Origin: a virus | Taxonomy: Duplodnaviria; Caudoviricetes | Direction: 5' to 3' (one strand) | IMG/VR virus record: IMGVR_UViG_3300025270_000009 | Coordinates: 37,853-101,852 of that record | Length of the DNA: 64,000 bases | Shown: piece by piece, positions 20,277 to 63,114 of the stretch | How the letters are laid out: each line of letters begins with the position of its first letter | Numbering within the stretch: the stretch's first letter is position 1 | The notes under the pieces: generated by a model | What the model saw: only the letters and a program-made list of their open reading frames with translations | Databases searched by the model: none | What the model was told of the DNA's origin: nothing | Position numbers and translations under genes: made by a program

Positions 20277-20430
20277 AGTTCAACAACATGACGACCTGTT
20301 GAGCCATTTGAATTCTCCACAATTCAGACGTATTACCAAGTCCTTTTGGTTAATTTTAAATCAGAGCCTTGCTTTGTGCACCGCGCACACTAGCTGAATG
20401 AAGCCCCTTTCGCCATGAGGGGCTTTTTTT
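20277..20430 (+). ncRNA. candidate multi-hairpin antisense sRNA (sRNA-1)
   Basis: Promoter, four small hairpins (three with anti-RBS-like loops), CCUUGCUU..GCUGAAUG boxes, terminator agcccc..ggggcttttttt. Confidence 0.7.
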
Positions 20431-20501
20431 ATTGCTGTCTATTGACCCCCTATCTATTTCATTTAGCATTGTCCGTGAATTCACAGAAACGGACTAACTG
20501 T

Positions 20502-20816
20502 ATGAAAAAACTACTATTTATTGGAACATTAACCCTGACACTGGCCGCTTGTGCAACTGGTCCACGACCAATGATGGCCAATGGTGAACGCTGCAAAGAA
20601 GACTACTACTCTCCGACCGGCGTACTCATGACCTGCGAACGTCAAAAGCGACAGGCCTCGATTGAAGCCAGTGAGAAGCTCAACCGTGAGCTCATTGAGT
20701 TTGCGAGACAACAAGTGCGAGAGACTAACGAACGAACAGGGTCCAGCTCTCGCGAGTGTGATGAGATTATTATTTCAAGTAGCGGTGAAGAGCTCTGCGT
20801 TATAAAGCAACGCTAG
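20502..20816 (+). CDS. lipoprotein
   Basis: MKKLLFIGTLTLTLAAC lipobox; true start 20502. Confidence 0.75.
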   Translation: MKKLLFIGTLTLTLAACATGPRPMMANGERCKEDYYSPTGVLMTCERQKRQASIEASEKLNRELIEFARQQVRETNERTGSSSRECDEIIISSSGEELCVIKQR

Positions 20817-21258
20817 TGAGTATGTAGGGGCTTTGCATAGTGGTGTGAACGTTTTTGCTTATTGAGAAGGCAACGGCCGATGTGTAAAGCTCCACAAAAT
20901 CCTGCTCAGACGTTGCGGCATCCTGAATAAACCCGACTATCATCTGCGCGACATCAAAGCTATCCCCTGGGAAGTTCAAGCACTCCCCTATTTTCTTGAA
21001 CGTCAGCTCCGCATGAGGCCCCTCAAACTGATGAAACTCAGAATGAAAGCCGGTGGTCTTGACGTGCAGCTGATAGGACAGCTCATCTTTCTCGATACCG
21101 CTAGCTTTGTTCATTTCTTTTATGAGCGGCAGCATGACTAATGCAGCCCGGTCATTACCGCTGAACGGATAGTCCTTGCTCTTGCTAACATAGCTGTTCA
21201 TAGCTGCTACGCCAATTGCCGATGGGTGTGTCATGTTGACGGCGACTTCTGGTGTCAT
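20800..21258 (-). CDS. hypothetical protein
   Basis: 152 aa ORF with AGGAG RBS. Confidence 0.7.
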   Translation of the reverse strand: MTPEVAVNMTHPSAIGVAAMNSYVSKSKDYPFSGNDRAALVMLPLIKEMNKASGIEKDELSYQLHVKTTGFHSEFHQFEGPHAELTFKKIGECLNFPGDSFDVAQMIVGFIQDAATSEQDFVELYTSAVAFSISKNVHTTMQSPYILTSVAL

Positions 21259-21690
21259 TTCACAATTACTCCTTCTGTCCTGTTGAGGCGAACTATATAA
21301 GAACGAGTTTTCAAATAAAACCCCTTGTTTTTTCTTTTAGAGCTTCAAAACCACGAATTTGCGCATTTTGTTGATAGATAACTGTCAATTTTCGGAATCT
21401 AAACCATTGATGGTAAAGGTGTTTTTAATTATTTCTGGAAAAGCGGCAATTTCTTGCCGAATGGGTATTTTTTAATCTGTTCGGGCTGTAACAAAATGTG
21501 ACAGTGCGAATTTTTGTTATCCGTACACGCCTAACGTTTTAACAATTATGCTCTATAAGTATTACTCCTATCATATCTACGTCTGTCTATAGGGATGAGT
21601 TGCAGCGAATTATCACACGGTTATTACCTAACATTTGTATATTGTGCATTTCTTTGTTTTTTAAGCGTCTTTTGGTGATTTCGGGTTAAA

Positions 21691-21730
21691 ACTCACTTAA
21701 GTGAGTGTTTCGTTGTAGTCACTTAAGTGA
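21691..21730. repeat. tandem palindromes TCACTTAAGTGA
   Basis: actcacttaagtgagt (21691-21706) and tcacttaagtga (21719-21730). Confidence 0.75.
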
Positions 21731-22091
21731 TTAGCCTGTTCTATAAGGGTTTTGGCGATTGTCTAACAAGTGCATTCATTAACTTTTCTTTTTTCTGACT
21801 TCGGCAATGGGTCAAGTAACGCTTCTCTGCAGCCCTTGTCAGTTCGTTCTGAGAGTCGGGTGGTCTGGTTCAAATTTATTGGTTAAGCGCCTTAAACTGG
21901 TGCAACCAGTTCTTTTCAAAACTTTACACTTTTGTGACTGCGGCCAATGCCACGAATTGACAGCCGGCTTTGAGCTTTTTGCTATACGGGTATAAGAGTC
22001 GATAACCTGGTGAGGCGGAAATTTGCCTAATTCCGTCGACCGGGTGATTTGGCTTGCTGTTTTGATTTGGCTGCTCGGGGAATTTTAGGCG

Positions 22092-22144
22092 TTTGGGTAT
22101 AAGGGTGAGTTTTCTGGTAGGCGGAAATTTGGGTATAAGGGTGA
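22092..22144 (+). repeat. 17-bp direct repeat tttgggtataagggtga
   Basis: Copies at 22092 and 22128; GGGTATAA core also at 21988, 27922 and 28020. Confidence 0.8.
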
Positions 22145-22247
22145 ATTTTTGATTGGCAGAAAATTTTGATTCCATCGGGGTCACGGCAGCTGAAAATCTC
22201 TAGGACTTTCAGTACCCGATTAAACTCTAATCATTCAATCGTTTTAA

Positions 22248-22379
22248 TCAATTCAGCATCATAATGCTATTACAAACAACAATCCCCGAAACGATCAAGC
22301 CGACAACGGATAATAAAGCGGCTTGTTTTAGTTGTTTATTGCGCTCTCTGCGCTTGATTCTCTTACTATAACGGCTCAT
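22248..22379 (-). CDS. small membrane peptide (43 aa)
   Basis: MSRYSKRIKRRERNKQLKQAALLSVVGLIVSGIVVCNSIMMLN; GGGAG RBS; ATGA overlap. Confidence 0.65.
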   Translation of the reverse strand: MSRYSKRIKRRERNKQLKQAALLSVVGLIVSGIVVCNSIMMLN

Positions 22380-22483
22380 AAAAACGCTCCCGATGACATA
22401 TAAGCTAGAGTAAAAGCAAACGGAACACCGACAACAACGAATAAAACGAATTGAGCGGCTTTCTTAGCGGTTTCTTTAATCAT
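22376..22483 (-). CDS. small membrane peptide (35 aa)
   Basis: MIKETAKKAAQFVLFVVVGVPFAFTLAYMSSGAFL; GGAG RBS. Confidence 0.65.
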   Translation of the reverse strand: MIKETAKKAAQFVLFVVVGVPFAFTLAYMSSGAFL

Positions 22484-22503
22484 TGCGAACACTCCGACCG
22501 ATG

Positions 22504-22533
22504 AAAAGAAAGAGCGGCACAGAATGCCGCTCT
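22504..22533 (-). terminator. intrinsic terminator
   Basis: agagcggca-cagaa-tgccgctct plus U-tract on minus strand. Confidence 0.65.
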
Positions 22534-22540
22534 GTTGCTC

Positions 22541-23218
22541 TTACTTGATATTGAATGCGGCTTTAAGCGTATTAAGCTTTTTAGTGTCCGCTGTCTCAGT
22601 CTCTAAAATACCGCCCCGACCGATCCAGTTGCCGAGCCCGATAAAAGCAAGTGACTTTAAAAACTCACGGCTTTGTGTCGCTGTCTTGTTGTCAATATGC
22701 TTTTGCAGCTTATCGACCGTGATCGCTTTCTTGTCGAAATTCTCTAAACAAAAACGGATCGCTTTTTCAAAGTTCGACAATTGCGGGTTGTATGTTTGCC
22801 CGTTCGCTTGTCGGGTTGTGTTCGCTTGATGTTTCGCTTTTTTCAGTGCGTTTTCTACGGTTTCACCGTGAAGAATGAAACATAAAGCGCTCATTTTTCC
22901 GTAGTTGTTGCGCTTTGCTTGCTCTGGATTTTTAGCGTGTTGTAATACGTCCGCTACTTTACCGGCAAAAGTGTAGTAGTTGTGTTGAGTAGCGGCTCGC
23001 TGTATAGCGTCAAAGTCGGCAGCGCTTTTGTCGGTTTCACTGATTTTTTGCGCTAGAGCTTCACGCTGCTTTGCTTGCTCTGTTGCAAACTCTGCAAAGC
23101 TCGGCTTTGTCTCTTCTGCTTTTTTCGCTGTCTGTTTGCGAGTAGCGGTTTTTTTCGCTGCTGCTTTTTTAGCGGTTTCTTTTGCTTGAGTTGCTTTAGT
23201 GTTTTTACGTTCTGACAT
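22541..23218 (-). CDS. hypothetical protein with K/A-rich N-terminus (putative pre-early DNA-binding protein)
   Basis: 225 aa; histone-like N-terminus; own operator-controlled promoter. Confidence 0.75.
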   Translation of the reverse strand: MSERKNTKATQAKETAKKAAAKKTATRKQTAKKAEETKPSFAEFATEQAKQREALAQKISETDKSAADFDAIQRAATQHNYYTFAGKVADVLQHAKNPEQAKRNNYGKMSALCFILHGETVENALKKAKHQANTTRQANGQTYNPQLSNFEKAIRFCLENFDKKAITVDKLQKHIDNKTATQSREFLKSLAFIGLGNWIGRGGILETETADTKKLNTLKAAFNIK

Positions 23219-23291
23219 AATAATTACTCTCTAAGTTTGATTGATTTTAAGCTGTATCGGCTCGGCTCTTTGTGCCGTGTCGATGATTCTT

Positions 23292-23319
23292 ATATTACAA
23301 CGCTGAGATATTCGATCAA
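23292..23319 (-). promoter_or_regulatory. promoter with operator (23292-23311)
   Basis: TTGATC..TG-TAATAT; operator atattacaacgctgagatat; AT-rich upstream region. Confidence 0.7.
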
Positions 23320-23539
23320 GTGCTTTTTATAGTTTTTTTTAATAAATTTGATTGTTTGATTACTTTTTAATCATTAGTATGTTTTTTAGTCATTCAGACA
23401 ATAAATATAAAGTTTTTGATTTTTTTCTATTGTATTTCAGCTAAAGCCGTGATAGTAACGCACGCACGTTAAATAAAAGTGCGAATCCTCGATGAGAACA
23501 CTCCTTATCCTCAACCACAGCCGTCACTTCTCTATACAG

Positions 23540-23810
23540 AATTCCAAGGACAAGCCCTCTCCCCTATGCTAATACAGCCTTTCCCTAACCCTGGCACAGC
23601 TCTCCCTGGCCATTCCTGTTGTCACAGCGCCAAGGTAACCAAGGCTGTTTTCTACAAATCCAAGGAAGCTCAGGTTTGCCCACGCTAACGCAGCCTTTCC
23701 CAAGTTTTACCAGGTCAGGCACTATATAGACCAAGGCAACCTTGGAGCCGGTGTGTGCTTACCAGTGGTCGGTCTATATCCCTACGCTAACGCAGCCATT
23801 CTTAAAATTT
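23540..23810. repeat. CCAAGG / CCTAYGCTAACGCAGCC motif cluster
   Basis: Motif copies at 23563, 23679 and 23781; ccaaggcaaccttgg at 23731. Confidence 0.75.
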
Positions 23811-23830
23811 GAGAGGATTGCCTGAAAAGG

Positions 23831-24026
23831 CGTGGCCGGCCAATGATAACGAAGATAACCAAAAGGACCGGCCGGCCACGATTGCCCGAAGGCAATTAGG
23901 GTTGGAGCGCTACTGAGTAAACTGAAGTAACAAAGAGAGAATGAAACCTCAGTAACGCCCCAAAAGTGGCGAGAAGGTGTAGACTGGACAGTAGTGCAAT
24001 GTGTGGGAAACTGTCTACACCTTCTC
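23831..24026 (-). ncRNA. structured RNA: three long-loop hairpins plus cUUCGg hairpin
   Basis: 11-, 16- and 14-bp stems with 28-30-nt loops; G-U wobbles and UUCG tetraloop only on minus strand. Confidence 0.7.
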
Positions 24027-24043
24027 TGAAAGAGTGACCACCA

Positions 24044-24292
24044 TCAGGCGGTCAAACGGGAATCTTGGGTAATTTTCAGCAAACCCTCATCCCTTTCAGC
24101 AGCAAGCATGAAATCAATAGCTTCAACCAGGGCCATGCTGAAAGTAAAGTAATGCTGCTCAGTTACTTTACGCTCCTGGTTAAGCGACGTTCTTAGCCTG
24201 AATTTATCCCCGACCTGTTTGATATGAGCAACCGCCTTATCACTGATATGCAGTTGCTCGCTCTCATCGGGGGTCTGGTAGACCCGCTTCAT
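24044..24292 (-). CDS. hypothetical protein
   Basis: 82 aa, GGAG RBS. Confidence 0.7.
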   Translation of the reverse strand: MKRVYQTPDESEQLHISDKAVAHIKQVGDKFRLRTSLNQERKVTEQHYFTFSMALVEAIDFMLAAERDEGLLKITQDSRLTA

Positions 24293-24293
24293 A

Positions 24294-24611
24294 TTAAGCG
24301 ACTCCGCTCACCACAGCCTGATAGCCTGTGAGCTTAGCGTTCTTTAAGCGCTCTTTTTGTGACACGAATGTACGGCTCTTAGTCAGCCCAAACAAACGTC
24401 TCTCACGCTCTGACAAGACACTGAACGGCTTAAGTCCTTCTTCTTGAAGAAACGCATAGCGTTGCTTATCCAACGTGAATGTCGCGCCATGCGAAAAGCC
24501 GTCTGACTTTAGTTGTTGTATCTGTTGAGCCGGTGTCATTGAAAGAAGAGCTTCCATGCTGACTGACAATTCCTTTTTGCTTTCACCGTTGCCAAAGATT
24601 GCTTGTTTCAT
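24294..24611 (-). CDS. hypothetical protein
   Basis: 105 aa, preceded by conserved leader. Confidence 0.75.
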   Translation of the reverse strand: MKQAIFGNGESKKELSVSMEALLSMTPAQQIQQLKSDGFSHGATFTLDKQRYAFLQEEGLKPFSVLSERERRLFGLTKSRTFVSQKERLKNAKLTGYQAVVSGVA

Positions 24612-24627
24612 TGTAAAATTCCTTCTG

Positions 24628-24715
24628 TTGCTTGCTTGTTTGCTGAATGTTGTTGAGCGATTTGCTGTCTCGCTTCAACGGTTTCTATATTACAGTGCTG
24701 AGATAGGGGAGCAAG
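24628..24715 (-). promoter_or_regulatory. leader/operator/promoter unit
   Basis: ttgcttgtttgctgaatg; operator 24687-24706. Confidence 0.75.
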
Positions 24716-24734
24716 CGAAGTTAAGAACTTAAAT

Positions 24735-24850
24735 CCCTACGCTTTCTAGCTCTACTCCAAGGACGCCTTGGTTTATACAGAACCAGTGGACGACAGGCAT
24801 TCCTACGCTAACGCAGCCAGTCCTAAAACCTGCCTTGGCAACCTTGAACC
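24735..24850. repeat. second CCAAGG-N3-CCTTGG / CCTACGCTAACGCAGCC cluster
   Basis: Copies at 24757 and 24802. Confidence 0.75.
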
Positions 24851-24916
24851 GGGTGAGAAACAAAAAAGGGCGACCGAAGCCGCCCAAACTTGCAGTGACA
24901 AGTTAAAAGACTCTGA

Positions 24917-25165
24917 TTAACGCTCGACCTCTGCGTAAACGTCCGAATCAACGTCCTGGCCAATTTCTTTCACAATATCGGTAGGAATAGGCATCAGAAA
25001 CTGAATTTTTCGTGAAATTCCGTCTTCAAACAAAACGTTTAAATGCTCTCCACCAACATATTTAATCTCCACCGGCTCCTGAGTAAACTGCTCTAACATT
25101 CGTCCGTCCACCAGATACGGTGTGGTGGTTTTCTTCATCACGTTTTTAAGGTGTTGTAGTTTCAT
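24917..25165 (-). CDS. hypothetical protein
   Basis: 82 aa; GAGG RBS; followed by UUCG terminator 24862-24885. Confidence 0.7.
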   Translation of the reverse strand: MKLQHLKNVMKKTTTPYLVDGRMLEQFTQEPVEIKYVGGEHLNVLFEDGISRKIQFLMPIPTDIVKEIGQDVDSDVYAEVER

Positions 25166-25172
25166 TCTTACC

Positions 25173-25505
25173 TCACAGTGTTATTTCTAAAAGTTCAAAT
25201 TCGAAGCTGTTGGGTGAAATGTGGTATTCAAAACCGAAGCTATCATCCAGTGCGTTTATCTCTAATGGCTTGAACACCTCCAAAGCGTTACGAGAAAACA
25301 TTGCCTTGATGTAACCCTTAAGCGTCAGCCCTGCGTCACCCGCTTCTTCACGCCAGTCTTTCTCCAGGTTTGGAGTGTGCTTCATAAGCCTTACCATAAG
25401 CTCGGGCAACGTATCTCTGTCATCGAGATCGGCAGAAAAGGTGTGCTTGTTCTCCGCATTTTCAATGTCTATCAAAACCAGCGTCTGTTGTGATTTAAGG
25501 TTCAT
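25173..25505 (-). CDS. hypothetical protein
   Basis: 110 aa; preceded by leader and operator 25540-25559. Confidence 0.75.
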   Translation of the reverse strand: MNLKSQQTLVLIDIENAENKHTFSADLDDRDTLPELMVRLMKHTPNLEKDWREEAGDAGLTLKGYIKAMFSRNALEVFKPLEINALDDSFGFEYHISPNSFEFELLEITL

Positions 25506-25691
25506 TACTCGTTCTCTCTTGCTTGCTGAATGTGAGTGTATATTACAACACTGAAATAGGCACTCAACAGCTTATCATAAACTATTTACCTCACAGCCGG
25601 CTTGGAATAGGAATAATTGTTTAGTCATTCGCTTGAACGCCTTTGTGTCAGTGTCATAATACACACTCATTCATAAAGAGAGAGAAAAACA

Positions 25692-25943
25692 ATGTCTGAA
25701 AAAGAGCCGAATTTCCTACGTGAAATCATGCAAGTGTTTATCCCGTCTACTCACAAATTTTATGAATTGAACGAGTTTGAGGACGGGAGCTTTAAAATTA
25801 CTGAGCAAACGATTGATGAAAAAATTGTAACAATTGAAGAAGCCGACCTTGTTGACTTCTACGGCGGCAAAACAATCAACTCTTACGAGAGTAAAGAAGA
25901 AGCTGTTGAGCAATTTAAGGAGCTGACATTCTCACAAATCTAA
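25692..25943 (+). CDS. hypothetical acidic protein
   Basis: 83 aa; TTGAAC..CATAAT promoter, AGAGAG RBS, UUCG terminator 25946-25972. Confidence 0.75.
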   Translation: MSEKEPNFLREIMQVFIPSTHKFYELNEFEDGSFKITEQTIDEKIVTIEEADLVDFYGGKTINSYESKEEAVEQFKELTFSQI

Positions 25944-26039
25944 GCAAGCGGCCTTCGGGCCGTTTCTTTTTTGTCAGCCGGCACCAAGGAAGCCTTGGTA
26001 TGAGTGGATTAAACAAAAAAGCGGCCGAAGCCGCCTTTC

Positions 26040-26261
26040 TCAGTCCGTTAATACATAGCAGTGCCAATAATCTCTCAAACTCACCTCTGCAATGCTCTGA
26101 TAACTTCTCATCATGGAAAAGTAATCATCCAGGTTATAAATAACGGCTTCAGGATGCTCAACCTCAACCGGCTCTTGGGTTAAGAAACTGGTTCCATCAA
26201 GCTCTTCTGCCTGTTCAAGCGTGTATTCGCTCTTAGGGAGTAATACAATTGTTGTTGCCAT
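26040..26261 (-). CDS. hypothetical protein
   Basis: 73 aa, last gene of operon, terminator 26015-26035. Confidence 0.65.
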   Translation of the reverse strand: MATTIVLLPKSEYTLEQAEELDGTSFLTQEPVEVEHPEAVIYNLDDYFSMMRSYQSIAEVSLRDYWHCYVLTD

Positions 26262-26263
26262 AA

Positions 26264-26515
26264 CTAATCCTTACCGATATTGACGTAAGTGACCCAAACC
26301 GTATCCAGGTCAATCGCCTCATCGTTACAGTCGTCCATAAACTGCGACAGAGTCATCACCTGAATATCGCAACACAGCGTATTACCTTCTTTGTTCACCG
26401 TCTCAGCAACCGCCTGAATGCTCTCAAACGGTCTGTCCTGGATTAGTTCGGCCACAGCCCGACCATCATTCACCCGAGCGGTTGGAATCAGTACTATATG
26501 CTTCTCAGACATCAC
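26264..26515 (-). CDS. hypothetical protein
   Basis: 83 aa, coupled; similar length and C-terminal W-x-x-YV to neighbour 26040..26261. Confidence 0.65.
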   Translation of the reverse strand: MMSEKHIVLIPTARVNDGRAVAELIQDRPFESIQAVAETVNKEGNTLCCDIQVMTLSQFMDDCNDEAIDLDTVWVTYVNIGKD

Positions 26516-26774
26516 GCTTCTCCTCTCTGGCCTTCACCCAACCGTAATGGTCGGCTATCGCCCTTAAAATGTTCAAAATCTCTTCTTCGCCTTTGAAAAA
26601 TCCAAAGATCGAATTGCCATGCTTAGATTGAATGTACCCCTCTAAAGCATTCACCCGATAAAAGCTGCCCTCCGGGTATTCCTCAGACAAAAACCGCCAA
26701 AAATCTGTCTCTACCATCGGAATGTTAGACGGATTGCCAGCCTTCATTTCTTCAAGAATTTTCTCTCTGTCCAT
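26505..26774 (-). CDS. hypothetical protein
   Basis: 89 aa, coupled. Confidence 0.65.
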   Translation of the reverse strand: MDREKILEEMKAGNPSNIPMVETDFWRFLSEEYPEGSFYRVNALEGYIQSKHGNSIFGFFKGEEEILNILRAIADHYGWVKAREEKRDV

Positions 26775-26777
26775 AGC

Positions 26778-27020
26778 CTACACCGCTGATAGTTCGTAAA
26801 TAACATGACCCTCACGCTCAGCCCAATCGACTAAGTGACGAGTCACCTCTGTCCAGTTCTTAGGAGCCGGTTTATCGCTTGGCCAACCGTCTCCTGCCCA
26901 AATCTCTTCCAGCTCTTCACCGTTATTCCAGTCACCGGCGATGAGAACGTTCGAGCTCTCATCCCAGTCACCAAAACAACTGATCCGGTGGCCACGATAG
27001 GTAATGACTGTTTTACTCAT
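26778..27020 (-). CDS. hypothetical protein
   Basis: 80 aa, GGAGG RBS. Confidence 0.7.
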   Translation of the reverse strand: MSKTVITYRGHRISCFGDWDESSNVLIAGDWNNGEELEEIWAGDGWPSDKPAPKNWTEVTRHLVDWAEREGHVIYELSAV

Positions 27021-27283
27021 GACGCCTCCGGATCGAAGTTAATGAACAGGTCGGCCACACTCTCGATAGCCACCCACATTTCATCAACGGTAAAGTCCTG
27101 GTAAGACTCAGCCGGTACCAAGTCACCGAAGTCGTTTGAACCATCGGGCATTTCATAAAGGGTCTTCAATGCCTGGTCAGCGGTTACCTCGTGCTCGGCA
27201 GGATTGTCACTGTCAGACACATTGTTGAAGAATAAAAGGAGTGAGCGCTTGTTGTAGGCTTCACGTATTTCATTGGCTGTCAT
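27017..27283 (-). CDS. hypothetical acidic protein
   Basis: Start reassigned to MTANE (27283), downstream of leader and operator 27319-27338. Confidence 0.7.
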   Translation of the reverse strand: MTANEIREAYNKRSLLLFFNNVSDSDNPAEHEVTADQALKTLYEMPDGSNDFGDLVPAESYQDFTVDEMWVAIESVADLFINFDPEAS

Positions 27284-27449
27284 AATAGACTCCACTTGCT
27301 GTTGCTGAATGTGCTTATATATTACATTGCTGAGATAGGCACGCAATAGCGACCGTTTATTCATATTCCTGCATAACTATCCACTATTTAAAACAAACCC
27401 TCGGGGATTTTTCTCGAAAACTGCATACCTACCCACACAAAGTGAATAA

Positions 27450-27780
27450 AACCCAAGGATTCCACGCATAAATACCCTATACAAACCCAAACCAACCAAG
27501 GACGCCTTGGATTAAACCCGACCTGCAGGTAACAGCCGGCCAAGGACTCTACATTCCTATGCTTTCATAGCCTTTCCCAAATTCTGACAGCCAAGGCTCT
27601 CTACAAACCTATGCTAACGCAACCAGTCCTGAATTCTGCTATAACTCCCTCACTCAATGTCGTTCCAAGAGCTTCACAGGCACGAGAACACGTCTAAAAG
27701 GGAAAACCTAAGCAACCATACCACCCAAGGGCTTACAATCGCTTACAGAGCGTGTCAGGCTTCCTTGGTTCAATCCCACA
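27450..27780. repeat. third CCAAGG / CCTATGCTAACGCA cluster
   Basis: ccaaggacgccttgg at 27496; motif copies at 27556 and 27608. Confidence 0.7.
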
Positions 27781-27844
27781 AGGGCTGGCAGTTATGTTTA
27801 TCACCGACTGTTGCTCACCACCGGCTGCGTGTTACTATAAACAC

Positions 27845-27920
27845 CGTCATGAAGAGCTGATTACTCTTTTTGATTATTTTAAGCTGTATTAGCCCTGGCC
27901 TCACGGTCGGGGCTTTTTTA
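27845..27920 (+). ncRNA. candidate antisense sRNA (sRNA-3) to leader of gene 22541..23218
   Basis: TTGCTC..TACTAT promoter; 8+7+14-nt identity blocks to 23223-23257; G-U-containing terminator plus U6. Confidence 0.72.
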
Positions 27921-28741
27921 TGGGTATAAGAAAAGACAGTTGGTAAATTTTTTTTGGAAATTTTGCGAGCGCCTGGTTTCCGGCTGTTTGTGCGTGTCCT
28001 GACTGGCCTGGGATTTTTTGGGTATAAAAGTTTGAGGGTCGCGCCCAATTTTTTTGTGAGGGAGCGCGTTCAACTAAACTCGTGCCTACTCCAATCACTC
28101 ACTATCTGCCTACTCTCTCAATCTCCTCTCTATACACTCGTGCCTACTCACATCATTCTCAATCGCCTACTTTCTCATTCAACAATCAATACACTCCTAT
28201 TCTACCTACTCACGCTCTCTCCCTTCATTCTCCCAATGTACACGTTATGCCTAATCACTCTCTCTATACACGTAAGCTCTCTTCTCTCCATAAGCATGAG
28301 CTCTCCCTGTACCTGTGTGAACGTTTGTTCTTCTCCGTGTGTTTCTTTGTTTTGTTTTATCGTTAGCTCCTTTACTCCTTATGATTGTTTGTTCATCCCT
28401 CCTAATGTTCGTTGTCCGTGTGAAATGTTTTTACTTTTATCGTTAGTTCCTGTCGGTCAGAACCGTTCTCCGGCTGTTACCTTTGATTGTTTTGTATTAT
28501 TGATAGCCGAGAGTTTTTGAAATTGTTTGAGGCATTTGTGTTTTGTGTAGCCTGGGTGTTTGTTGGACTTGTTTTGTGAACGGGTTATTCCTGTGTTTTG
28601 TATAGTGAGCCGGGTGTTTGCTTGTGTTTGTGAAGGGAATGCTGTGCTGAGCTTATGAGACGCTTATTTGCTTGGTTTTGTTTTGTGTTGTGAGTCAGAA
28701 TGAGAAAAGCCGACTCTAGGCCGGCTCTGTTAGGCTCTCAA

Positions 28742-28948
28742 TCATTCAAAGTCTCCCTCGAAAATAGCTCTTTTGTTGACTCTGTCCGTGACAATGTCTA
28801 CTCCGCCTGTGCTATACGGGTCGGCCTTGCATTTTTTGAAATATGATACTGCCTTCTTCTTGTCGGTCGTTCGACCGGCGTAAGTGCCTTGACCTCTTCC
28901 ATCGGCGCTTGAGCCGTCATAGAGTAGGTACCAGGTTTCTTCAATCAT
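28742..28948 (-). CDS. hypothetical protein
   Basis: 68 aa, GAGGTG RBS. Confidence 0.65.
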   Translation of the reverse strand: MIEETWYLLYDGSSADGRGQGTYAGRTTDKKKAVSYFKKCKADPYSTGGVDIVTDRVNKRAIFEGDFE

Positions 28949-29153: not shown

Positions 29154-29165
29154 TGCCTATTCAAC

Positions 29166-53567: not shown

Positions 53568-53580
53568 ACTTCCTCCTACG

Positions 53581-54416: not shown

Positions 54417-54453
54417 CTCTATACAAAAATAAGCAAGAACAGCCTTTCCCTAA

Positions 54454-55449
54454 TTACCACTCGGCCATGTCATCGTAAGTGTCACGCTCTGACTCAAAGA
54501 AGTTTGTTTCAAAGGCGACATCATCAGCACGCTCTTCAACAAACGGAGCCGGATCTTTTGTAACACCGGGGTAGATTTCACCCAGGCCTAGCGCTTTCGA
54601 GTATTGGTTGGTCAGATACTCGATGTAGGTCTCCATGAGCTCGTTCGATAAGCCCATAATGCCGTCACCGATGATGTGATTGCCCCACTGCTTTTCAAGC
54701 TCAGCCGTGTTCTTCAGAATGTCCTTAGCACGCTCACGGAATTCCGGAGTGTCTACTTCAGGGTTTTCAGCCAACACGTCTTTAAACATGGCATTGAACA
54801 GGCGCAAATGGTTATTTTCATCGCGGTGGATGTAACGAATTTGCTTAGCCGATTCGGGCATTTTTTTGTTTTCTGCCAAAGCGTAGAAAAACAAAAATCC
54901 AGACTGGAACATAATGCCTTCTAGCGCCTGGTTTGCGACTGTGGCCAAAGCAAAGTTCTCGGTCGAGAAACCTTCCGGCATCAACACGTTCATCACGCGA
55001 ACGTACTTGTTCTTTTCGTGAAGAAGGTCGTCAGTCATGAACATATTGTAAGTTTCGATAGGGTCAAAGCCCATTGTCTCGATCATTAAGCTGTACGCCA
55101 TGACGTGCATGGACTCATCAAAAATCTGACGACTCAACGCCATGCGGTACCAGGGCGAAGTCACATGAGAGTTAACCACGTTCAAGTTGTTCAGCTGAAG
55201 ACCGTCCAGATTTGACAAGAACGCCAGGGCTTTTTGGTAACCGCGTTGCTCAGCCTCAGTTAGAGAGGACCACTGTTGAACGTCACGGCTCATGTCCACA
55301 GAAGACTCATTCCAATGGTCTTCACGCATCTTGTCGTAAATCGCCATTGCAGCCGGGTGCTTGGCCGGTTTGATCTGCATTAACCCATTGTCAGGGCCAT
55401 TAATTACACGATAATCGTCTAAGTTGATGATTTCTTTATCAGATTTCAC
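54454..55449 (-). CDS. nrdB: ribonucleotide reductase class Ia beta subunit
   Basis: NLDG, ESMH..Y, EG..F..GF, DENNH, NFFE. Confidence 0.93.
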   Translation of the reverse strand: MKSDKEIINLDDYRVINGPDNGLMQIKPAKHPAAMAIYDKMREDHWNESSVDMSRDVQQWSSLTEAEQRGYQKALAFLSNLDGLQLNNLNVVNSHVTSPWYRMALSRQIFDESMHVMAYSLMIETMGFDPIETYNMFMTDDLLHEKNKYVRVMNVLMPEGFSTENFALATVANQALEGIMFQSGFLFFYALAENKKMPESAKQIRYIHRDENNHLRLFNAMFKDVLAENPEVDTPEFRERAKDILKNTAELEKQWGNHIIGDGIMGLSNELMETYIEYLTNQYSKALGLGEIYPGVTKDPAPFVEERADDVAFETNFFESERDTYDDMAEW

Positions 55450-55506
55450 GTCTATTCTCCGCTACTAATTACAAAATGAGAGGGACAATAAGTCCCTCAA
55501 CAACAA

Positions 55507-55866
55507 TCACTGACACGCTTCGCAAGCAATCTCTTCGTCAGCGTCATAGTCGGTCGCTTCAGCAAGCTCAAAGACTACTCGCTCGATGCGACTCTCATCG
55601 TCACCAGTAACCCGGTTTTCTTCCATGCCATAGGCAAAGGTCATTACCGTTGGTGCCGAGCGGATATTGCGCAGATGCAAAAAGCCGTTATCCACGTCTT
55701 TAATGTCGATTTTGATAAAGTCGATACTCTGATGAGTTTCTTCTAACTTTTTCAACGTGCGCTCTGCACTTTGGCAGGGTGCACAGTTTGTAGCGCAAAT
55801 CATGAGGACCGTAGGACGGCCCTCTGTTAAACGCTGTACCATTTTTTTGTGATCTAACTGTTGCAT
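55507..55866 (-). CDS. thioredoxin-like protein with extra C-terminal CEAC tail
   Basis: CAPC active site, cis-Pro APT, ends DYDADEEIACEACQ. Confidence 0.85.
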   Translation of the reverse strand: MQQLDHKKMVQRLTEGRPTVLMICATNCAPCQSAERTLKKLEETHQSIDFIKIDIKDVDNGFLHLRNIRSAPTVMTFAYGMEENRVTGDDESRIERVVFELAEATDYDADEEIACEACQ

Positions 55867-55868
55867 GA

Positions 55869-58061
55869 TTAAGCTCCTACTTTTTTAGCTGCTGAAGAGG
55901 TTTTTTGCTTCTTCAGGTAATAAGTTGATTTCAAACCTAAGCGCCAAGCCAGGTCGTAAATTGCAGCGACTTCTCGCCCTTTTGTGTCCGCCTTGCAATA
56001 GATATTCAGACTTTGAGACTGATCTACCCATTTCTGGCGAACCGCAGCCGGACGAATCTGCCACTCCGGAGATATTTCATAAGCCGTCTTCGTTATTTCA
56101 GGCCGGTTGTATTGCTGACACGGCTCTACAACACGGTATAAACCGCCTATGTTTTCTTTCTTGAATACACGGTGCTCACTTGCTTCAGTACAAGGCGTGG
56201 TACCGGCTATGTTGGCGATGGTTGCCGTTGGTGCGACCGCCATTAGGTTGCAGTTGCGCATACCTTGTTTAGCCAGTTCGCGAACACGGTCCCAAGCCTC
56301 AGCTGAGTACACGTTTGTTTCACGGTTGCGAGCGGTATCAATTGGCAAAATGCCCTGAGACCACAAGCTACCTTCAAACGACTCGTACCGGCCTCGAGTT
56401 CGAGCCAACACGCTTGAGCTAACGATTGAGTGATATGAAATAACCTCAAACACTTCGTCTGCCCATTTCAGGTGCTCTTCTGACTCATAATCGATGCCAC
56501 ATTGAACAAGTGCTTCTGCGTAGCCCATGACACCAAGACCGATTGGGCGATGACGCATATTCGAGCGGCGAGACTCATCGCTTGGGTAGTAATTGAGGTC
56601 AATTACGTTATCCAACATTTCGATAGCGTCAGAAACCGCCTGGCCAAGCAGGTCAAAGTCAATTTTTCCGTCAACAACCATACGGCTCAGGTTGATAGAG
56701 CCTAAGTTACACACGAACGTCTCATTAGTGCTGTTGTTCAGCGAGATTTCAGTGCACAAGTTCGAGTTGTGAATCATTCCGTCGTGCGACTGAGGATTAC
56801 GGCGATTATGCTCGTCCTTAAACGTCAGCCACGGCGCACCTGTTGTCATGACGCTCAGAACGATTTTCTGCCAAAGCTCAGCTGCATTAATCTGGTGACG
56901 CGCTTTACCGGCCTTCTCAGCTTCAATGTAAAGGCGCTCAAACTCTGCACCGTAGCTCTCAACAAGCTCGGGGCACTCGTCAGGGTCAAAGAACGACCAG
57001 ATTGCTTCCGGATCTTCTTTACGCTTCATGAATAAATCGTTCATGAAGAAAACAGGGAAAATGTCATGAGTTCGGCGGCGCTCATCGCCTGTCTTCTTCT
57101 TCAGATCGATAAAGGCTAGAGCGTCTGCGTGCCACGGCTCAAGATAAGCCGCAAAAGCTCCCTTTCTCTTACCTCCCTGGTTAACAGCTACAGAGGTGTC
57201 GTTATAAACTTTCAGGAACGGCACAATCCCTGAGCTTCTTCCATTCGTTGCGCGAATGTGTCCACCCATCGACCGTACACCTGTCCAGCACGTTCCAATC
57301 CCCCCGGCATACTTCGACAGAGCGGCGCACTCGGTCATCTTTGGGTAGATACCGCCCTCATCAATCAAGCTGTCACCAACAAAGTTGCCGTAACATGAGC
57401 TCATTTGGCTGAAGTTGGTGCCTGAGTTAAACAAGGTCGGTGTCGAGCTCACAAACTCCAGGCTGCTCAGCCGGTCGTAGTAACGAATTGCTGCTTCAGT
57501 GCGCTCTTCTTCACTGTCAAAGTTCAGGCTTAAGCCCATTGCGACACGCATCCAGAAGTGCTGAGGCAGCTCAAACAAACGACCCACTTTTTCATCACGC
57601 AAAGGTTCTTTACGCATCAAATATCTTTCTGTCAGTGTTGACATACCGACAAAGTCAAATAAAGAATCACGCTCCTGAACGATAGCGTCATTAAGGTCGT
57701 CCATGTTGAAGCGCAGCATACGCTTGTCAAAACGGTTCTCTTCGATACCAGTAATGATTGTCTCTTCAAGGCCTGGGTACCGTAAAGAGCCGCCGGTCAC
57801 TTCTTTGAAGTTGTTCATCATCATCAGACGCGCTGCCACAAACGTGTAGTTACGCTCTTCTGATACTTTCTGTGCTGCCGAGATAATCAAGGCATTTTGA
57901 ATGTCAGACGTTGGGATGCCGTCAAAGAATTTAAGCGTTGTGCTCATTACAACGTCATCCGGTGAAACGTTTTCCAGGTCACGGCACGCGAATTTTGCAG
58001 CGGCGGTGATCTTGTCGATGTTCAACTCTTCAAGAGAGCCGTTCTTTTTAGTGACTTGCAT
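55869..58061 (-). CDS. nrdA: ribonucleotide reductase class Ia alpha subunit
   Basis: ATP cone, TPTLFN, SSC, SNLCTEI, VCNLGS, APTA, STYY; operator 58115-58134 upstream. Confidence 0.96.
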   Translation of the reverse strand: MQVTKKNGSLEELNIDKITAAAKFACRDLENVSPDDVVMSTTLKFFDGIPTSDIQNALIISAAQKVSEERNYTFVAARLMMMNNFKEVTGGSLRYPGLEETIITGIEENRFDKRMLRFNMDDLNDAIVQERDSLFDFVGMSTLTERYLMRKEPLRDEKVGRLFELPQHFWMRVAMGLSLNFDSEEERTEAAIRYYDRLSSLEFVSSTPTLFNSGTNFSQMSSCYGNFVGDSLIDEGGIYPKMTECAALSKYAGGIGTCWTGVRSMGGHIRATNGRSSGIVPFLKVYNDTSVAVNQGGKRKGAFAAYLEPWHADALAFIDLKKKTGDERRRTHDIFPVFFMNDLFMKRKEDPEAIWSFFDPDECPELVESYGAEFERLYIEAEKAGKARHQINAAELWQKIVLSVMTTGAPWLTFKDEHNRRNPQSHDGMIHNSNLCTEISLNNSTNETFVCNLGSINLSRMVVDGKIDFDLLGQAVSDAIEMLDNVIDLNYYPSDESRRSNMRHRPIGLGVMGYAEALVQCGIDYESEEHLKWADEVFEVISYHSIVSSSVLARTRGRYESFEGSLWSQGILPIDTARNRETNVYSAEAWDRVRELAKQGMRNCNLMAVAPTATIANIAGTTPCTEASEHRVFKKENIGGLYRVVEPCQQYNRPEITKTAYEISPEWQIRPAAVRQKWVDQSQSLNIYCKADTKGREVAAIYDLAWRLGLKSTYYLKKQKTSSAAKKVGA

Positions 58062-58156
58062 ACTACCTCTAGTGTTATTTCTTATATCGAGTTACTAAAT
58101 GTTGGGGTTTCGTAGTATCTCAGCGTTGAAATACACAATCAACCCCAAAAAACGAA

Positions 58157-58549
58157 TTACAATCTGCTAATTTTTAACAGGTGCGAATAAAACGCAACAA
58201 ACGGATAAGCAATGGCCGCGTTTATCAACGCATAAGCTGGCAGATAAACCGGGTCGAGCGTTTCTATAAAGACCAACCCTAATGGCCAGGCAATGACTGC
58301 CACCGCCATATTCACGAAGATCCAGCGAACAAGGTTCCACGATCTGCGAGCCATATAAACATTGCGGTAATTTTCCGATGCTTTTGCAAGCGCATAGTCT
58401 GTCGCTTTTCTGGTGCCAAGAAACAGGTCGCGCATAAAAACAGACAGGGCAACGTAAAACGGAACAAACCAGTACGGGTTCATTTCGTGCTCAGTCTGAC
58501 AATATACCGGCAGTAGCATCATCAACACGATTATAGCGAAAACCTGCAT
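58157..58549 (-). CDS. membrane protein
   Basis: 3-4 TM segments. Confidence 0.6.
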   Translation of the reverse strand: MQVFAIIVLMMLLPVYCQTEHEMNPYWFVPFYVALSVFMRDLFLGTRKATDYALAKASENYRNVYMARRSWNLVRWIFVNMAVAVIAWPLGLVFIETLDPVYLPAYALINAAIAYPFVAFYSHLLKISRL

Positions 58550-58551
58550 GA

Positions 58552-59145
58552 TTACGCTCCTATCGCCATTTTCAGCGCATTTCTGAAATAGTTAAACTCT
58601 TCGGTTTCCAGGCCGGCTTGAATCGCTGCAATAGCGTCTGCGGCGTGCTCATTGAAGCCTTCTGTGAAAACCATTTCACCGTTTTTCTTGTGCTTCTTCC
58701 ACGGTGCATTAGGATGCACTTCGCGCACTGCATCAATCATGGTTTGCTTGGTTATAGCGCCTTTAAGACCCATAGCCTTTTTGTTTTCAGCTTCACTCAG
58801 TTGAAATACCGGCAGACCTGTCTCGTTTGATACAGCGGCCAATACAGTAATGCACATGGCATAGCTCAACTGGGAGCTAGCGTTTTGCGAGCCGTGTGGC
58901 ATTTCGACGAACAATGCTTTCGGCTTGTGCTCGTCAATAGAGGCCATAACCTGTTTGTGCAGATACTTGGCTCGGTCAAAGTTCTGAGAGCTTTTGCGCA
59001 CCTGCTTTTTCTTGGACTTATCCAGTTTATTTTTAATGACGTCGATATGAGTCACTTCAAATTCCAGATCTTCAATGTCGAGGTTGGCTACCGCCAAACC
59101 CCAGTTAGTCATGCTAGGGTCATAACCCATCACTACTTGCTGCAT
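58552..59145 (-). CDS. RuvC-like Holliday junction resolvase
   Basis: GYDPSMTNWG, FVE, EHAADAIAA; start MQQVV. Confidence 0.8.
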   Translation of the reverse strand: MQQVVMGYDPSMTNWGLAVANLDIEDLEFEVTHIDVIKNKLDKSKKKQVRKSSQNFDRAKYLHKQVMASIDEHKPKALFVEMPHGSQNASSQLSYAMCITVLAAVSNETGLPVFQLSEAENKKAMGLKGAITKQTMIDAVREVHPNAPWKKHKKNGEMVFTEGFNEHAADAIAAIQAGLETEEFNYFRNALKMAIGA

Positions 59146-59146
59146 T

Positions 59147-59596
59147 TTATACTCCGTATTTTCCCCAACTTGGAATGCGCTCTCGCATTTCTTCGTTTTC
59201 ACCACGCTTGTAAAGCTCAACTGTGCTTTCAAGCTCCTTTTCGACAATCTGCTCAAACTGAACAAATTGCTCGACCGTTGCTGAATAACCGAGCTCATTA
59301 ATAATGCACTCTGCTATTTCAACGTTTTCCGGTTTCTCCAGGTTCGCTCTTATGCGTCGAGTTCGTATCTTGCCTTCGACATAAAGAGTGCCGTTCTCAT
59401 CGACAAGCCTCGGACTTCTAATGACGGCGCCTGGGCCAACTGTTGACTCCTGGTAACCATGCTTTTCTCTGAAGTCCACCAACAGCTGAGCCGCATTAAC
59501 GTCTAGCTTGCCTAGCGACTCAACTTTTACCCCCCAGTCATCAATAAGGGCTCTCAGAACTATCGGCTTCAACCTTAACCTCCTTTGCCTTAACAA
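59147..59596 (-). CDS. hypothetical protein (start uncertain)
   Basis: Fills operon gap. Confidence 0.55.
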   Translation of the reverse strand: MLRQRRLRLKPIVLRALIDDWGVKVESLGKLDVNAAQLLVDFREKHGYQESTVGPGAVIRSPRLVDENGTLYVEGKIRTRRIRANLEKPENVEIAECIINELGYSATVEQFVQFEQIVEKELESTVELYKRGENEEMRERIPSWGKYGV

Positions 59597-60065
59597 CCTC
59601 TACATCATTCAAATCAACAATTCCGGCTATACCCTCCTCGTCAATCATTTCTTGAGCTATGGCGGCATAACCTCCCCTCAAAAACGCATCATCCCGAGCA
59701 CAGGCATTGTTAATTCGAACCTTTACGGTCACCTCAAGATGCTGTGTTTCATTGCAGTGCGGTCTAAACTGCTCGCAGTTTTTCTCTGCACGATCTTGCT
59801 CATTAAGCCAGTAGAAGACCTTGTCTTTGCTCTGCTCATCCGGGTCTTCTACGACTTCACTGCCTGGCACCAACTGGATCTCACTAACTTCGTCATCAGG
59901 AATCCCGAATCTCGACTTAAGTGGCCAAAAAGATGTTCCGTTTGGAAGGCACCACTTAACGACCTCACCCTTCTTGGTTTTTATGTTGTAGAGGTCTTTG
60001 TAACGAAAGCCGGTGTACTCGACCCAACGTCCAAAGTCATCGTATCTATGGTTTACTTCGTTCAT
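59541..60065 (-). CDS. hypothetical protein
   Basis: 174 aa, coupled to SbcC-like gene. Confidence 0.65.
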   Translation of the reverse strand: MNEVNHRYDDFGRWVEYTGFRYKDLYNIKTKKGEVVKWCLPNGTSFWPLKSRFGIPDDEVSEIQLVPGSEVVEDPDEQSKDKVFYWLNEQDRAEKNCEQFRPHCNETQHLEVTVKVRINNACARDDAFLRGGYAAIAQEMIDEEGIAGIVDLNDVEVVKAKEVKVEADSSESPY

Positions 60066-61990
60066 TACTCCACCAATGTTGCTTGACCGTCACGTTTGAC
60101 GACCGTTACTTGTTGACGAATCCAGTCTCTAAGCTCGTTATGACTGATTACCAGTACTGTTCCGTGTGTACGTGCACGTTCATCAAGTACATTCATCAAT
60201 CGCTCAAGGCCGGCTGTATCGAGTGCATGGTCTATCTCATCACCGATATACAGATCGATGTTTTTAACAGCTCGGGTAGACACCAGATCTTGCAATGCCA
60301 AGTTTGTTGACAAGCGAACCTTGCGCTTCTCGCCGCCTGACAGCGCCTTGAATGAGTTGCCGCCTGTCTGAGATTCCACATCAATCGTGAACTTCTCAGT
60401 CAGCTCGCCGTTGGCCTTTTTGCTTAGTGTTTGCCATGTCGCCGTAATGTTGCCGTCTGACAGCGCTGACAAGTACTCCGCCGTTCTCTGGTTAAGATAA
60501 GGCGTTACCGTGTCGAGAATATGAGCACGAACACCCGAATTCCCGTAAACTTCTGCAACTTCCTTCATCACCTCAACAGTCTCAGCTTGCTCTTCAAGAT
60601 CACTTATGACCTTTTCATAGCTCTTCTTCTGGTCAGCCAAACGCTTCTCAAGACGCTCAATACTCTGCTTGTGAGGGTTAGACTCATCACTTTTGGCGTG
60701 CTCGAGCTGTATCTTTTTAGAGTCAATTGACTCCTTTTCGCGCTTAAGGTTATCAACCGCTCGTTGATATTCGTTTCGCTGATTGAAAAGCGCCACGATC
60801 TCAGAATCATCGAACTCCGGCGCCTCTCTTCTGGCCACATTCAATTCTGTTTGAGCATCGTCAAGCTGCTTCTCAAGGTCGGCAAGCTTTGGCTTCTCCT
60901 GCTTTATCTCGGCCATTAACTCGTCAAGGCGCTTCTTGCGGACTTCAATGACATCAGCCATGTCATGCTCCGAGTAAGGCTTGCCACACTCGCGACAATC
61001 AGTGCCAATTAGCGACTCACTGTTGTCTATTTCACCCTTGAGCTTTCTCGCTTCATTGGCCAACTGACTCAGCTCAGCCCGAACCTTGCTGTGCTCAGCC
61101 TGGACTGCAGAAAGGTTTGCCTGTTTCTGAGCCTCATAAGCTTTGTGCGCTGCTTTGGCTTCTGTTCGAGACTCTTCAATTTCCTTTATCTTGTCTTCAA
61201 TTGAATCGTCTTTCTTACCCTTCAGCTCGGCTGCTTTTTCTCTAACAGAAGCGGCCTTTTCTTCAATTTCTCGCTCAAGGTCTGCCACAACCTGCTTTTG
61301 GCGCTCTTCGTGCTCTTTAGCCTGAGACTTGGCTTGCTCCAAATCTTCTTTTGTTGTCTGCAAGCTGCGAGCTTCAAACTCCTTGCTTTGAGAAAGTGTT
61401 TCGTAATCCCGCTTTGCATCCTTCAGCTTGTCTTTGGCCAACTTATAGGCGTTTTGCAGTCGAGTGATTCCGGCTGCTTCTTCAACAATGGTCTTTAGCT
61501 CTTTATCGGTCATGGCGGGTAAGTCCACCTGAGCCTCTTGAGCGCTATACACGGACGCATTGAAGATTTCTTGACTGCAACCTAAGACTTCTACAATTTT
61601 CGCCTGAGTGAGCTTGTCTGTGCCGCCTGTGAGCGATTCTTCTTTGCCGTCAGCAATACGAACAAGCTGAACCGAATTTTTGAACTCTTTGTGCTTGCGA
61701 TACCGGGTTACCACGTACTTGTCGTCACCGTCGATGATCTCTACCGACACCGAGCAATTTTTCTTGGCTTTTCGGTTAACAATGTCGGTAGGTGAAATGC
61801 CCCGAGCTGTCACGCCAAACAGACACCAACTTATTGCATCAGCAATAGTTGATTTACCGGCTCCGTTTGAGTTCTGACTTTCGTCATGCTCGTTCTCGCC
61901 CTGTATCAACAGAAGCCCTCGTTGCTGAAGGTTAATCGATGCTTCACCGATTGCCATGAAGTTAATGATATTTACGTCGCCAAAGTGCAT
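60065..61990 (-). CDS. SbcC/Rad50-like ATPase
   Basis: NGAGKST, CRECG zinc hook, LSGGE, DE, SH. Confidence 0.93.
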   Translation of the reverse strand: MHFGDVNIINFMAIGEASINLQQRGLLLIQGENEHDESQNSNGAGKSTIADAISWCLFGVTARGISPTDIVNRKAKKNCSVSVEIIDGDDKYVVTRYRKHKEFKNSVQLVRIADGKEESLTGGTDKLTQAKIVEVLGCSQEIFNASVYSAQEAQVDLPAMTDKELKTIVEEAAGITRLQNAYKLAKDKLKDAKRDYETLSQSKEFEARSLQTTKEDLEQAKSQAKEHEERQKQVVADLEREIEEKAASVREKAAELKGKKDDSIEDKIKEIEESRTEAKAAHKAYEAQKQANLSAVQAEHSKVRAELSQLANEARKLKGEIDNSESLIGTDCRECGKPYSEHDMADVIEVRKKRLDELMAEIKQEKPKLADLEKQLDDAQTELNVARREAPEFDDSEIVALFNQRNEYQRAVDNLKREKESIDSKKIQLEHAKSDESNPHKQSIERLEKRLADQKKSYEKVISDLEEQAETVEVMKEVAEVYGNSGVRAHILDTVTPYLNQRTAEYLSALSDGNITATWQTLSKKANGELTEKFTIDVESQTGGNSFKALSGGEKRKVRLSTNLALQDLVSTRAVKNIDLYIGDEIDHALDTAGLERLMNVLDERARTHGTVLVISHNELRDWIRQQVTVVKRDGQATLVE

Positions 61991-61992
61991 GA

Positions 61993-63066
61993 TTAAGCCT
62001 CCACTTCCTGCAGCACTGCCAGTGCTTCTTTCACAACACGGTTCTTGCGAATAGAATCGCGTGATTCAACATAGCTCTCAATTGAGCCCTCTAGCGTCTC
62101 TGACTTTTCAGTATCAACACTGTCCTTGCGCTCAGTGACGTTGGTCTTCGGTGTAGCAACAATTGACACACCAAGTGCGCCCCTCTCTTTCATGTCGTTT
62201 TTCAGAGAGCTTGATTCTTCAATGCTTAGCTCAGAAGCACGAACACGAACGAAATTACCGGGTACGTGGTAAACAGCGTCTTCGTAATCTTCCTCTTCGC
62301 TTATCAAGTCCATGTTCACGTCTACGAATTTAGGCGCCTGAGTTTCAAAGTGCTTGACGCTGTCACCTTCAACCAGTATGAATCCGGCTCTGGAGCTAAT
62401 ATCGCCAAAGTTCTGATGTGTTAACGCACCAACAGACACAACCGACTTGTCATCGTCTATGTCAAACACTTTGTGATTGTGGTAATGACCAAAGTAGAAG
62501 CGCTTGGCTTTATACTTCGCAAGCTCTTCGTATGAGAAGCCGTGATCGGGTATGCCGCTAATCACGCCGTTCAATTGCGCGTGCAGGTGAACATGAGCGT
62601 TTCCGTTACTATCATCCAACTGATTGCTAAGCTCTTCACGCAAGTCATCCAGGTTTGCAAACCAGGGCATTAATAGCGTTTCTTCGTCAATCCAGGTTGG
62701 TTCTGTCACAACATTGACACCGACACCCTGAAGCGCTGAACTGGCGTTAGACACCCACTCTGAGTCACGACCTTCTAAGTCATGGTTGCCGGCTATCATG
62801 TGAATGCCGTCTTCAAACTTACCTTCGTACTCTTTGTACAGGTTTAGTACCGGGTTCAAAACGCTCGGAATGATTTTTCCGCGAACATGAAAGCAATCGC
62901 CGTCATGGATAACTCGGGTAGCACCCTCTTTCAGAGCGTGCTCAAACGCTTCTCGGGTTGCCTCTATGATATGCAAAAGTCGGCTGTTAACGCCGTCCAC
63001 AGTTGTGCTGAATTGGTCGAAATTGTGATAGTGAGTGTCACTTATCAAGCAATCGAATCTGTTCAT
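61993..63066 (-). CDS. SbcD/Mre11-like nuclease
   Basis: SDTH, GD, GNHD, GHYH; leader and operator 63094-63113. Confidence 0.93.
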   Translation of the reverse strand: MNRFDCLISDTHYHNFDQFSTTVDGVNSRLLHIIEATREAFEHALKEGATRVIHDGDCFHVRGKIIPSVLNPVLNLYKEYEGKFEDGIHMIAGNHDLEGRDSEWVSNASSALQGVGVNVVTEPTWIDEETLLMPWFANLDDLREELSNQLDDSNGNAHVHLHAQLNGVISGIPDHGFSYEELAKYKAKRFYFGHYHNHKVFDIDDDKSVVSVGALTHQNFGDISSRAGFILVEGDSVKHFETQAPKFVDVNMDLISEEEDYEDAVYHVPGNFVRVRASELSIEESSSLKNDMKERGALGVSIVATPKTNVTERKDSVDTEKSETLEGSIESYVESRDSIRKNRVVKEALAVLQEVEA

Positions 63067-63114
63067 CTTTTAATCTCGCTTGTCTTGCTGAATGTATTTC
63101 AATACTTACATAAA

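Follow-up and report, generated by a model that had tools for sequence, protein, structure and literature searches.

The question raised by a 64,000-nucleotide (nt) stretch of a Caudoviricetes genome (the window; bases 37853-101852 of the 101,852-bp virus record IMGVR_UViG_3300025270_000009) is why some two dozen genes of one phage carry nearly the same short tag ahead of their ribosome-binding sites, and whether the phage itself encodes the RNA that reads it. From sequence comparison and analogy we put at about three in four the probability that trans-acting small RNAs (sRNAs) repress translation of the phage's own regulon in a mode resembling that of GcvB. The system is probably real and functional, and looks like a network of one broad sRNA, encoded by the unit at 48552, and three mostly single-target RNAs directed at hns, gene 23218 and gene 21258 (genes are named here by their start positions).

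Nineteen genes in the window, and about six outside it, have the tag, ACAUUCAGCAA..AAGCAAGG, upstream of their ribosome-binding sites. The earlier note on this DNA had read a common leader before about 19 minus-strand genes, and the core is indeed present at every one of them, in minus-strand leaders within 24612..63095 (genes starting at 24611, 25505, 27283, 31755, 33607, 34214, 34715, 36575, 37567, 39860, 40859, 42017, 43350, 45856, 46909, 48364, 50363, 53886 and 63066). The copy of 34715, the hns gene (34735-34744), is the variant ATTCAGCTAG, and a degenerate copy precedes dut (52090, minus strand); the tagged genes beyond the window are a cobS-like gene, parA, a 446-aa gene, DNA ligase and two small genes. 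A search of the window with the 12-mer at up to two mismatches, for which 7.6 hits would be expected, gave 23, a total reached by no shuffle, while exact ATTCAGC occurs in 24 of 130 translation-initiation windows, such that 24 of its 39 occurrences on the strand fall within about 4% of that strand. The distance from tag to AUG is 18-39 nt (mostly 26-31), that from tag to the 18-bp operator described below is 0-56 nt, and among the genes that the tag precedes are parA, ligase and others whose promoters are unrelated. With its position tied to the AUG even there, the tag thus behaves like a part of the mRNA. It is missing from the operator-controlled promoters of capsid, portal, tail-fibre and other virion-region operons.

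The longest plus-strand copy of the tag, at 48500-48524, coincides with the seed of a candidate broad anti-tag sRNA of about 88 nt on the minus strand (48465..48552), preceded by an operator-free promoter (TTGTCG-17-TGTAAT, 48560..48588, minus strand). In the predicted fold the 5' GUAAG pairs with CUUGC to close a hairpin, which is followed by an exposed 11-nt toehold and an intrinsic terminator. This predicted single-stranded toehold has its exact complement in the part of the leader that varies least, and across 23 leaders the complementary part shows just four deviations, all A-to-G. Plain duplex energies calculated without accessibility are uninformative; when start regions of the window are ranked against the seed, 22 of 24 tagged leaders fall within the top 23 of 129, the tagged set including one probably internal start inside the cobS-like gene. 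The best-matched target is the leader (50364..50394, minus strand; 22-23 bp) of gene 50363-49917, which encodes 148 aa. No terminator is evident between the operator-controlled gene 49058 and the downstream unit, and induction may therefore add read-through RNA from that gene.

Relatives of this genome allow seeds and leaders to be compared between phages. The genome, found in marine metagenomes and with its two ends overlapping by 168 bp, is by homology, synteny and its RepA and ParA an SSU5/nickie-like phage-plasmid: matches to its helicase and to a head-region protein of 304 aa were found in nickie, RHEph10, SSU5 and phage-plasmids of Klebsiella, Aeromonas and Acinetobacter, with which it also has the gene order around the exonuclease in common, and RepA and ParA are encoded alongside virion genes. 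The best matches of H-NS and MazF (35-55% identity) come from assorted proteobacteria, mainly gammaproteobacteria, and to judge from H-NS the host is probably a marine gammaproteobacterium. Through protein homologues we retrieved a close strain (L004, L010) and phages B (L005, L011), C (L012, L019) and D (L015); these relatives retain a similar operator, and phages B and C have tagged leaders. Neither the tag nor a 48552-type unit was found in the stretches examined of the nickie, Klebsiella, Aeromonas, L021 and L023 loci, scans of viral, metagenome and genome collections gave no further usable relatives, and DNA runs with a low share of the genome yielded just scattered short contigs.

Unit 48552 recurs in four lineages, the window and three divergent relatives, and in this four-phage set the neighbouring winged helix-turn-helix protein has 36-64% identity to the window's version. 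The extended -10 (TGCTGTAAT) is invariant, and the GUAAG/CUUGC stem, the exposed UUGCUGA(AUGU) and a terminator are kept; the hairpin and loops and the terminator sequence vary. The units have a promoter and a terminator and no conserved open reading frame (ORF), and their exposed seeds change together with distant start regions, in the few lineages at hand. Thus a 6-nt insertion is common to the window seed and the window 50363 leader, in phage C CAUU is missing from the leaders, which read ACAGCAAGCAAGG, and the matching AUG from the seed, and in three phages the leader of the 50363 homologue follows the phage's own seed. Cognate seed-leader energies are -21.9 in the window, -15.5 in phage B and -14.7 in phage C, with the cross pairs of these three at -9.2 to -14.3, and specificity of the seed for tagged leaders is also seen in phages B and C. 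Covariation of seed and leader in relatives, on which the earlier note had staked its proposal in advance, was accordingly found; its idea that one seed addresses many tagged leaders on top of an operator regulon came through this test, and its interpretation as a whole is partly supported. The network does not look like one of several broad RNAs.

Two other roles for this unit were rejected. A plus-strand mini-gene led by the inverted tag would have no promoter in the window, and neither a Shine-Dalgarno (SD) sequence nor a start in phage B; a protein decoy in the manner of CsrB is discounted because the RNA bears the complement of the tag and not a copy of it. In phage B a MazEF-type toxin-antitoxin pair (L011:9207-9787) is inserted directly upstream of the sRNA promoter, which it leaves undisturbed.

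A match between an RNA and a single distant leader is found at the unit at 27845. This plus-strand sRNA candidate (27844..27920), with an operator-free promoter (27811-27838) and a terminator (27891-27919), is antisense to the leader and SD of gene 23218 (225 aa; 22541..23260 with its leader, minus strand), 4.6 kb away. All three promoter-terminator units of the earlier note, namely this one and those at 48552 and 20277, are present as it described them (folding z for the set -6.1, -4.2 and -2.8), and the complementarity it had proposed here recurs in two phages as a perfect helix reaching up to the SD, of 14 bp in the window and 16 bp in phage B. Between these phages an indel of one base is matched in RNA and leader, two substitutions compensate each other across the helix, and the pairing ranks first among 130 start regions in the window and 54 in phage B (p<0.001 each). 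The corresponding place in phage C is taken by a promoter-hairpin-terminator unit whose sequence differs, the 23218 target of phage C lying outside the contig. Gene 23218 has a K/A-rich N-terminus and probably ends in a winged helix, by a weak resemblance; it may, on similarly weak grounds, be a distant paralogue of gene 48364. Genes 23218, 50363 and 21258 received no functional assignment from searches of Atlas, Pfam and PHROG.

Several other features mark the surroundings of this pair. The element GGGTATAA occurs genome-wide only in two clusters of the same orientation (21988-22139 and 27922-28028), both kept in phage B, which flank a block of about 5.8 kb with gene 23218, the hairpin array described next and unit 27845; the clusters may be packaging, terminal-repeat or injection boundaries. 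At 23544-27768 CCAAGG/CCTTGG sites, often as spaced palindromes, and a 17-nt repeat present five times occupy the intergenic gaps of a 4-kb block, and both are also present in the corresponding part of phages B and C. The segment 27950-28720 has few ORFs and strand-biased, low-complexity sequence, with an equivalent at the same position in phage C.

The hairpin array (23831..24026, minus strand) lies downstream of the 24611-24044 operon and comprises three long stems with loops of 26-30 nt. The array of phage B has two stems and loops unrelated to those of the window, and in the close strain one stem change preserves a base pair. Loop 2 of phage B pairs with the leader of the 21258 homologue through 18+3 bp over the SD, the best of 54 start regions and beyond all 60 shuffles; in the window loop 1 (about 23986-24013, minus strand) pairs with the leader of gene 21258 (152 aa; 20800..21290 with its leader, minus strand) at p 0.007, and cross pairs between the phages are weaker than the cognate ones. 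CAU occurs in all five array loops of the window and phage B, against about 0.3 expected per loop, and array loop 3 has 13 nt in common with one loop of unit 20277. Window loops 2 and 3 and phage B loop 1 score at shuffle level against phage start regions, with no target found, and two loops have no exact match in viral contigs. The array that the earlier note had described as having anti-RBS-like loops is there, with an in-genome candidate target for just loop 1 of the three window loops. Phage B loop 1 (L005:9404-9437) has a 13-nt complement to the start of the window's ParB-like gene 17279 (17267-17279) and not to that of phage B's own homologue; this match is either a coincidence or a guide aimed at a related phage.

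Unit 20277 (20277..20430, plus strand) is an operator-controlled sRNA candidate, whose promoter (TTTACA-17-GATACT, 20242..20270, plus strand) is overlapped by an operator at 20251-20268, both being kept in phage B. It has three loops with anti-SD-like sequence, a terminator at 20400-20430, and plus-strand seeds at 20367-20374 and 20390-20401 against the hns leader and the tag core. Its candidate target is the H-NS gene with its leader (34305..34745, minus strand), at whose promoter no operator was found. Phage B retains promoter, operator and terminator around a shorter and different body, and in both phages the tag core finds its complement in the bases immediately 5' of the terminator. Locally the hns leader matches best, or ties for best, in both, through different sequences (p 0.013 and 0.033). 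Since hns had been named from the window alone, phage B is a fair if modest confirmation, and action on the hns leader is moderately supported by these comparisons. Of the complementarity to both the common leader and hns claimed in the earlier note, it is the hns part that holds, at this moderate level, as the match to the common leader consists of two 8-9-nt seeds and is weak. A shut-off of all early genes by this operator-controlled RNA is accordingly poorly supported, because the pairing to the common leader is weak (-8 to -12 kcal/mol). The three 5' loops do no better than shuffles against phage start regions. The terminator loop keeps CGCCAU (20413-20418) in both phages, a sequence that complements the hns start codon region in phage B.

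Beneath these candidate RNAs would lie a transcriptional layer. An 18-bp palindromic operator, TAT[CGT]TCA-N4-TGA[GAC]ATA, has 32 sites genome-wide at up to one mismatch against 0.1 expected; in the window these sites (476..63112, unstranded) overlap early and late promoters, and at early, replication and virion promoters the overlap falls on the -10/+1 or on the -35, a layout that fits a global repressor, as with C1 of P1 (PMC8198154). Two candidates for this repressor, to either of which operator binding can be ascribed only putatively, form one operator-controlled, tagged operon (47299..48412, minus strand): gene 48364, conserved across SSU5/nickie-like phages, has a C-terminal winged helix (Z 8-10), and the clade-specific gene 47826 encodes the sole Cro/C1-type helix-turn-helix (HTH) protein of the genome. 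After the HTH gene a 389-bp gap (46910-47298) holds short repeats partly conserved in phages B, C and D. In the Klebsiella phage-plasmid pJN2-26 (L018:19100-29110) a different repeated palindrome-like element, AAACAA-N-TTGTTT, precedes many early genes and is likely that plasmid's own operator.

These observations suggest how the two layers might work together. A putative repressor would bind the operator at about 30 promoters, and the operator-free sRNA of about 88 nt would use its exposed toehold to dock on the ACAUUCAGCAA tag, which about 24 phage mRNAs carry close to their 5' ends. Its own 5' stem would then open, presumably after the toehold has paired, the predicted pairing would extend to the SD, and translation initiation would be blocked, by analogy with GcvB. 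The RNA layer would cover early and auxiliary genes, because the virion promoters have the operator and no tag. RNAs 27845, 20277 and the array would act on one gene each (23218, hns and 21258), and two of these three targets likely encode DNA-binding proteins. A likely use is that of a threshold, by which leaky or incoming-phage early transcripts would be silenced in the plasmid state until the sRNA is titrated once about 20 promoters fire at induction; the sRNA may later switch off early translation. We tentatively favour a lysogen threshold or immunity as the main use, consider late shut-off of early genes a possible but more doubtful one, and leave the balance of our expectation to both uses counting equally or to another. 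It is conceivable, though we hold it loosely, that one constitutive sRNA provides repressor-independent silencing of all the early regulon and superinfection immunity, with a titration switch, and that the array is lytic, with fast-changing loops of which some act on host genes or competing phages.

Several points weigh against translational repression by these RNAs. There is some circularity in ranking tagged leaders by their fit to the seed; the seed of phage B on the target of phage C nearly equals the cognate pair (-14.3 against -14.7); the bias of leader variants toward G-U wobble (17:2) has p 0.06 on copies that are not independent; and parA is tagged although presumably needed in the plasmid state. 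The hns match is modest, its p values of 0.013 and 0.033 being accompanied by rank 7 by accessibility-corrected energy in the window, and the window array-21258 pair is third of 130 and was tested post hoc, after phage B. Covariation rests on few events, because unit 48552 was found in four divergent lineages and each of the other pairs in two.

The RNAs could also be true antisense partners that stabilise or activate their targets, for instance by shielding the 5' end from decay. In the commonest class of cassettes the tag begins at about the +1 predicted from the -10 position, so that the duplex would cover the mRNA 5' end; in other cassettes, however, the tag follows the AUG and not the +1, the duplexes abut or enter the SD, and the A-rich leaders have by inspection no obvious inhibitory fold to relieve, all of which makes this improbable. 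Slightly harder to credit is the tag as a DNA element, a site for a second regulator or a relic of recombining promoter cassettes, in which case its inverted or repeated copies would be conversion tracts or DNA sites and not RNA seeds. Plain homology does make eleven of the cassettes copies of one another, there is a loose resemblance between CATTCAG and half an operator site, the 27845 seed and 23218 leader are direct DNA repeats, and gene 23218 may encode a DNA-binding protein; against this, the tag keeps its AUG distance before unrelated promoters, every complementary copy falls in the exposed part of a conserved fold within an ORF-less promoter-terminator unit, and the same logic holds in four separate pairs. 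Finally, the tag might mainly be a C/A-rich translation enhancer or protein-binding site, with the sRNA truly targeting one or few genes such as 50363 and the rest incidental. C/A-rich elements before the SD do enhance translation by themselves (PMC3879156), and in three phages the leader of the 50363 homologue does follow the seed. This is to our minds the least probable of the three, given the near-invariance of the toehold complement, the shift of the tag consensus along with the seed in phage C, and the scores of other leaders, that of 33607 being level with 50363 in the window and several outscoring the homologue in phage B; an enhancer role is moreover compatible with sRNA targeting, as for GcvB.

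Repression by pairing at a shared tag thus remains our preferred account, and GcvB its nearest parallel. GcvB-like sRNAs of enteric bacteria likewise place a U/G-rich seed on a C/A-rich enhancer immediately upstream of the SD of many mRNAs, with the same order of hairpin, seed and terminator (PMC3879156). However, GcvB is a host RNA for amino-acid genes, whereas here the RNA and all targets found are phage-encoded and the tag is a near-invariant 11-mer within repeated cassettes; the units have no sequence or Rfam similarity to GcvB. C4 of P1/P7 is, like the RNA proposed here, a phage-plasmid antisense RNA that masks a ribosome-binding site and acts beside a many-operator repressor, but it is a 77-nt three-stem RNA with two loops, processed by RNase P from the transcript of the operon it controls, icd-ant (PMC5320573, PMC8198154). 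Unit 48552 instead starts at a promoter and ends at a terminator of its own, and its toehold is linear, with candidate targets dispersed over about 24 leaders; its predicted fold of one 5' stem, linear seed and terminator lacks the three stems of C4, no Rfam family including C4 matches near its gathering score in the window or relatives, and nothing downstream was recognised as a homologue of ant or icd.

Among phage RNAs, P22 sar, lambda OOP and aQ and BTP1 STnc6030 are cis-encoded. In the part of a 2025 review cited here (PMC12197685) they lower phage gene expression and affect lysogeny or superinfection, each through a single phage gene, whereas most targets here lie kilobases from the RNA. 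VpdS of VP882 and PreS of lambda are, as here, phage-encoded and trans-acting, but in that account they use Hfq to act on RNAs of host and phage, and phage leaders have no built-in common tag; the phage RNAs it treats have single phage targets or host targets (PMC12197685). Our literature searches, which did not cover most subscription papers, found no description of a tag-addressed phage regulon, and the phage antisense RNAs found described act on one phage gene or operon each. If the present proposal is true, translation is a level at which temperate phages can control an early programme as a whole, through a tag on about two dozen mRNAs, which would offer a mechanism for early-gene shut-off where early and late promoters share one operator, as well as a second, RNA-based layer of immunity, in a system compact enough to be testable in E. 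coli.

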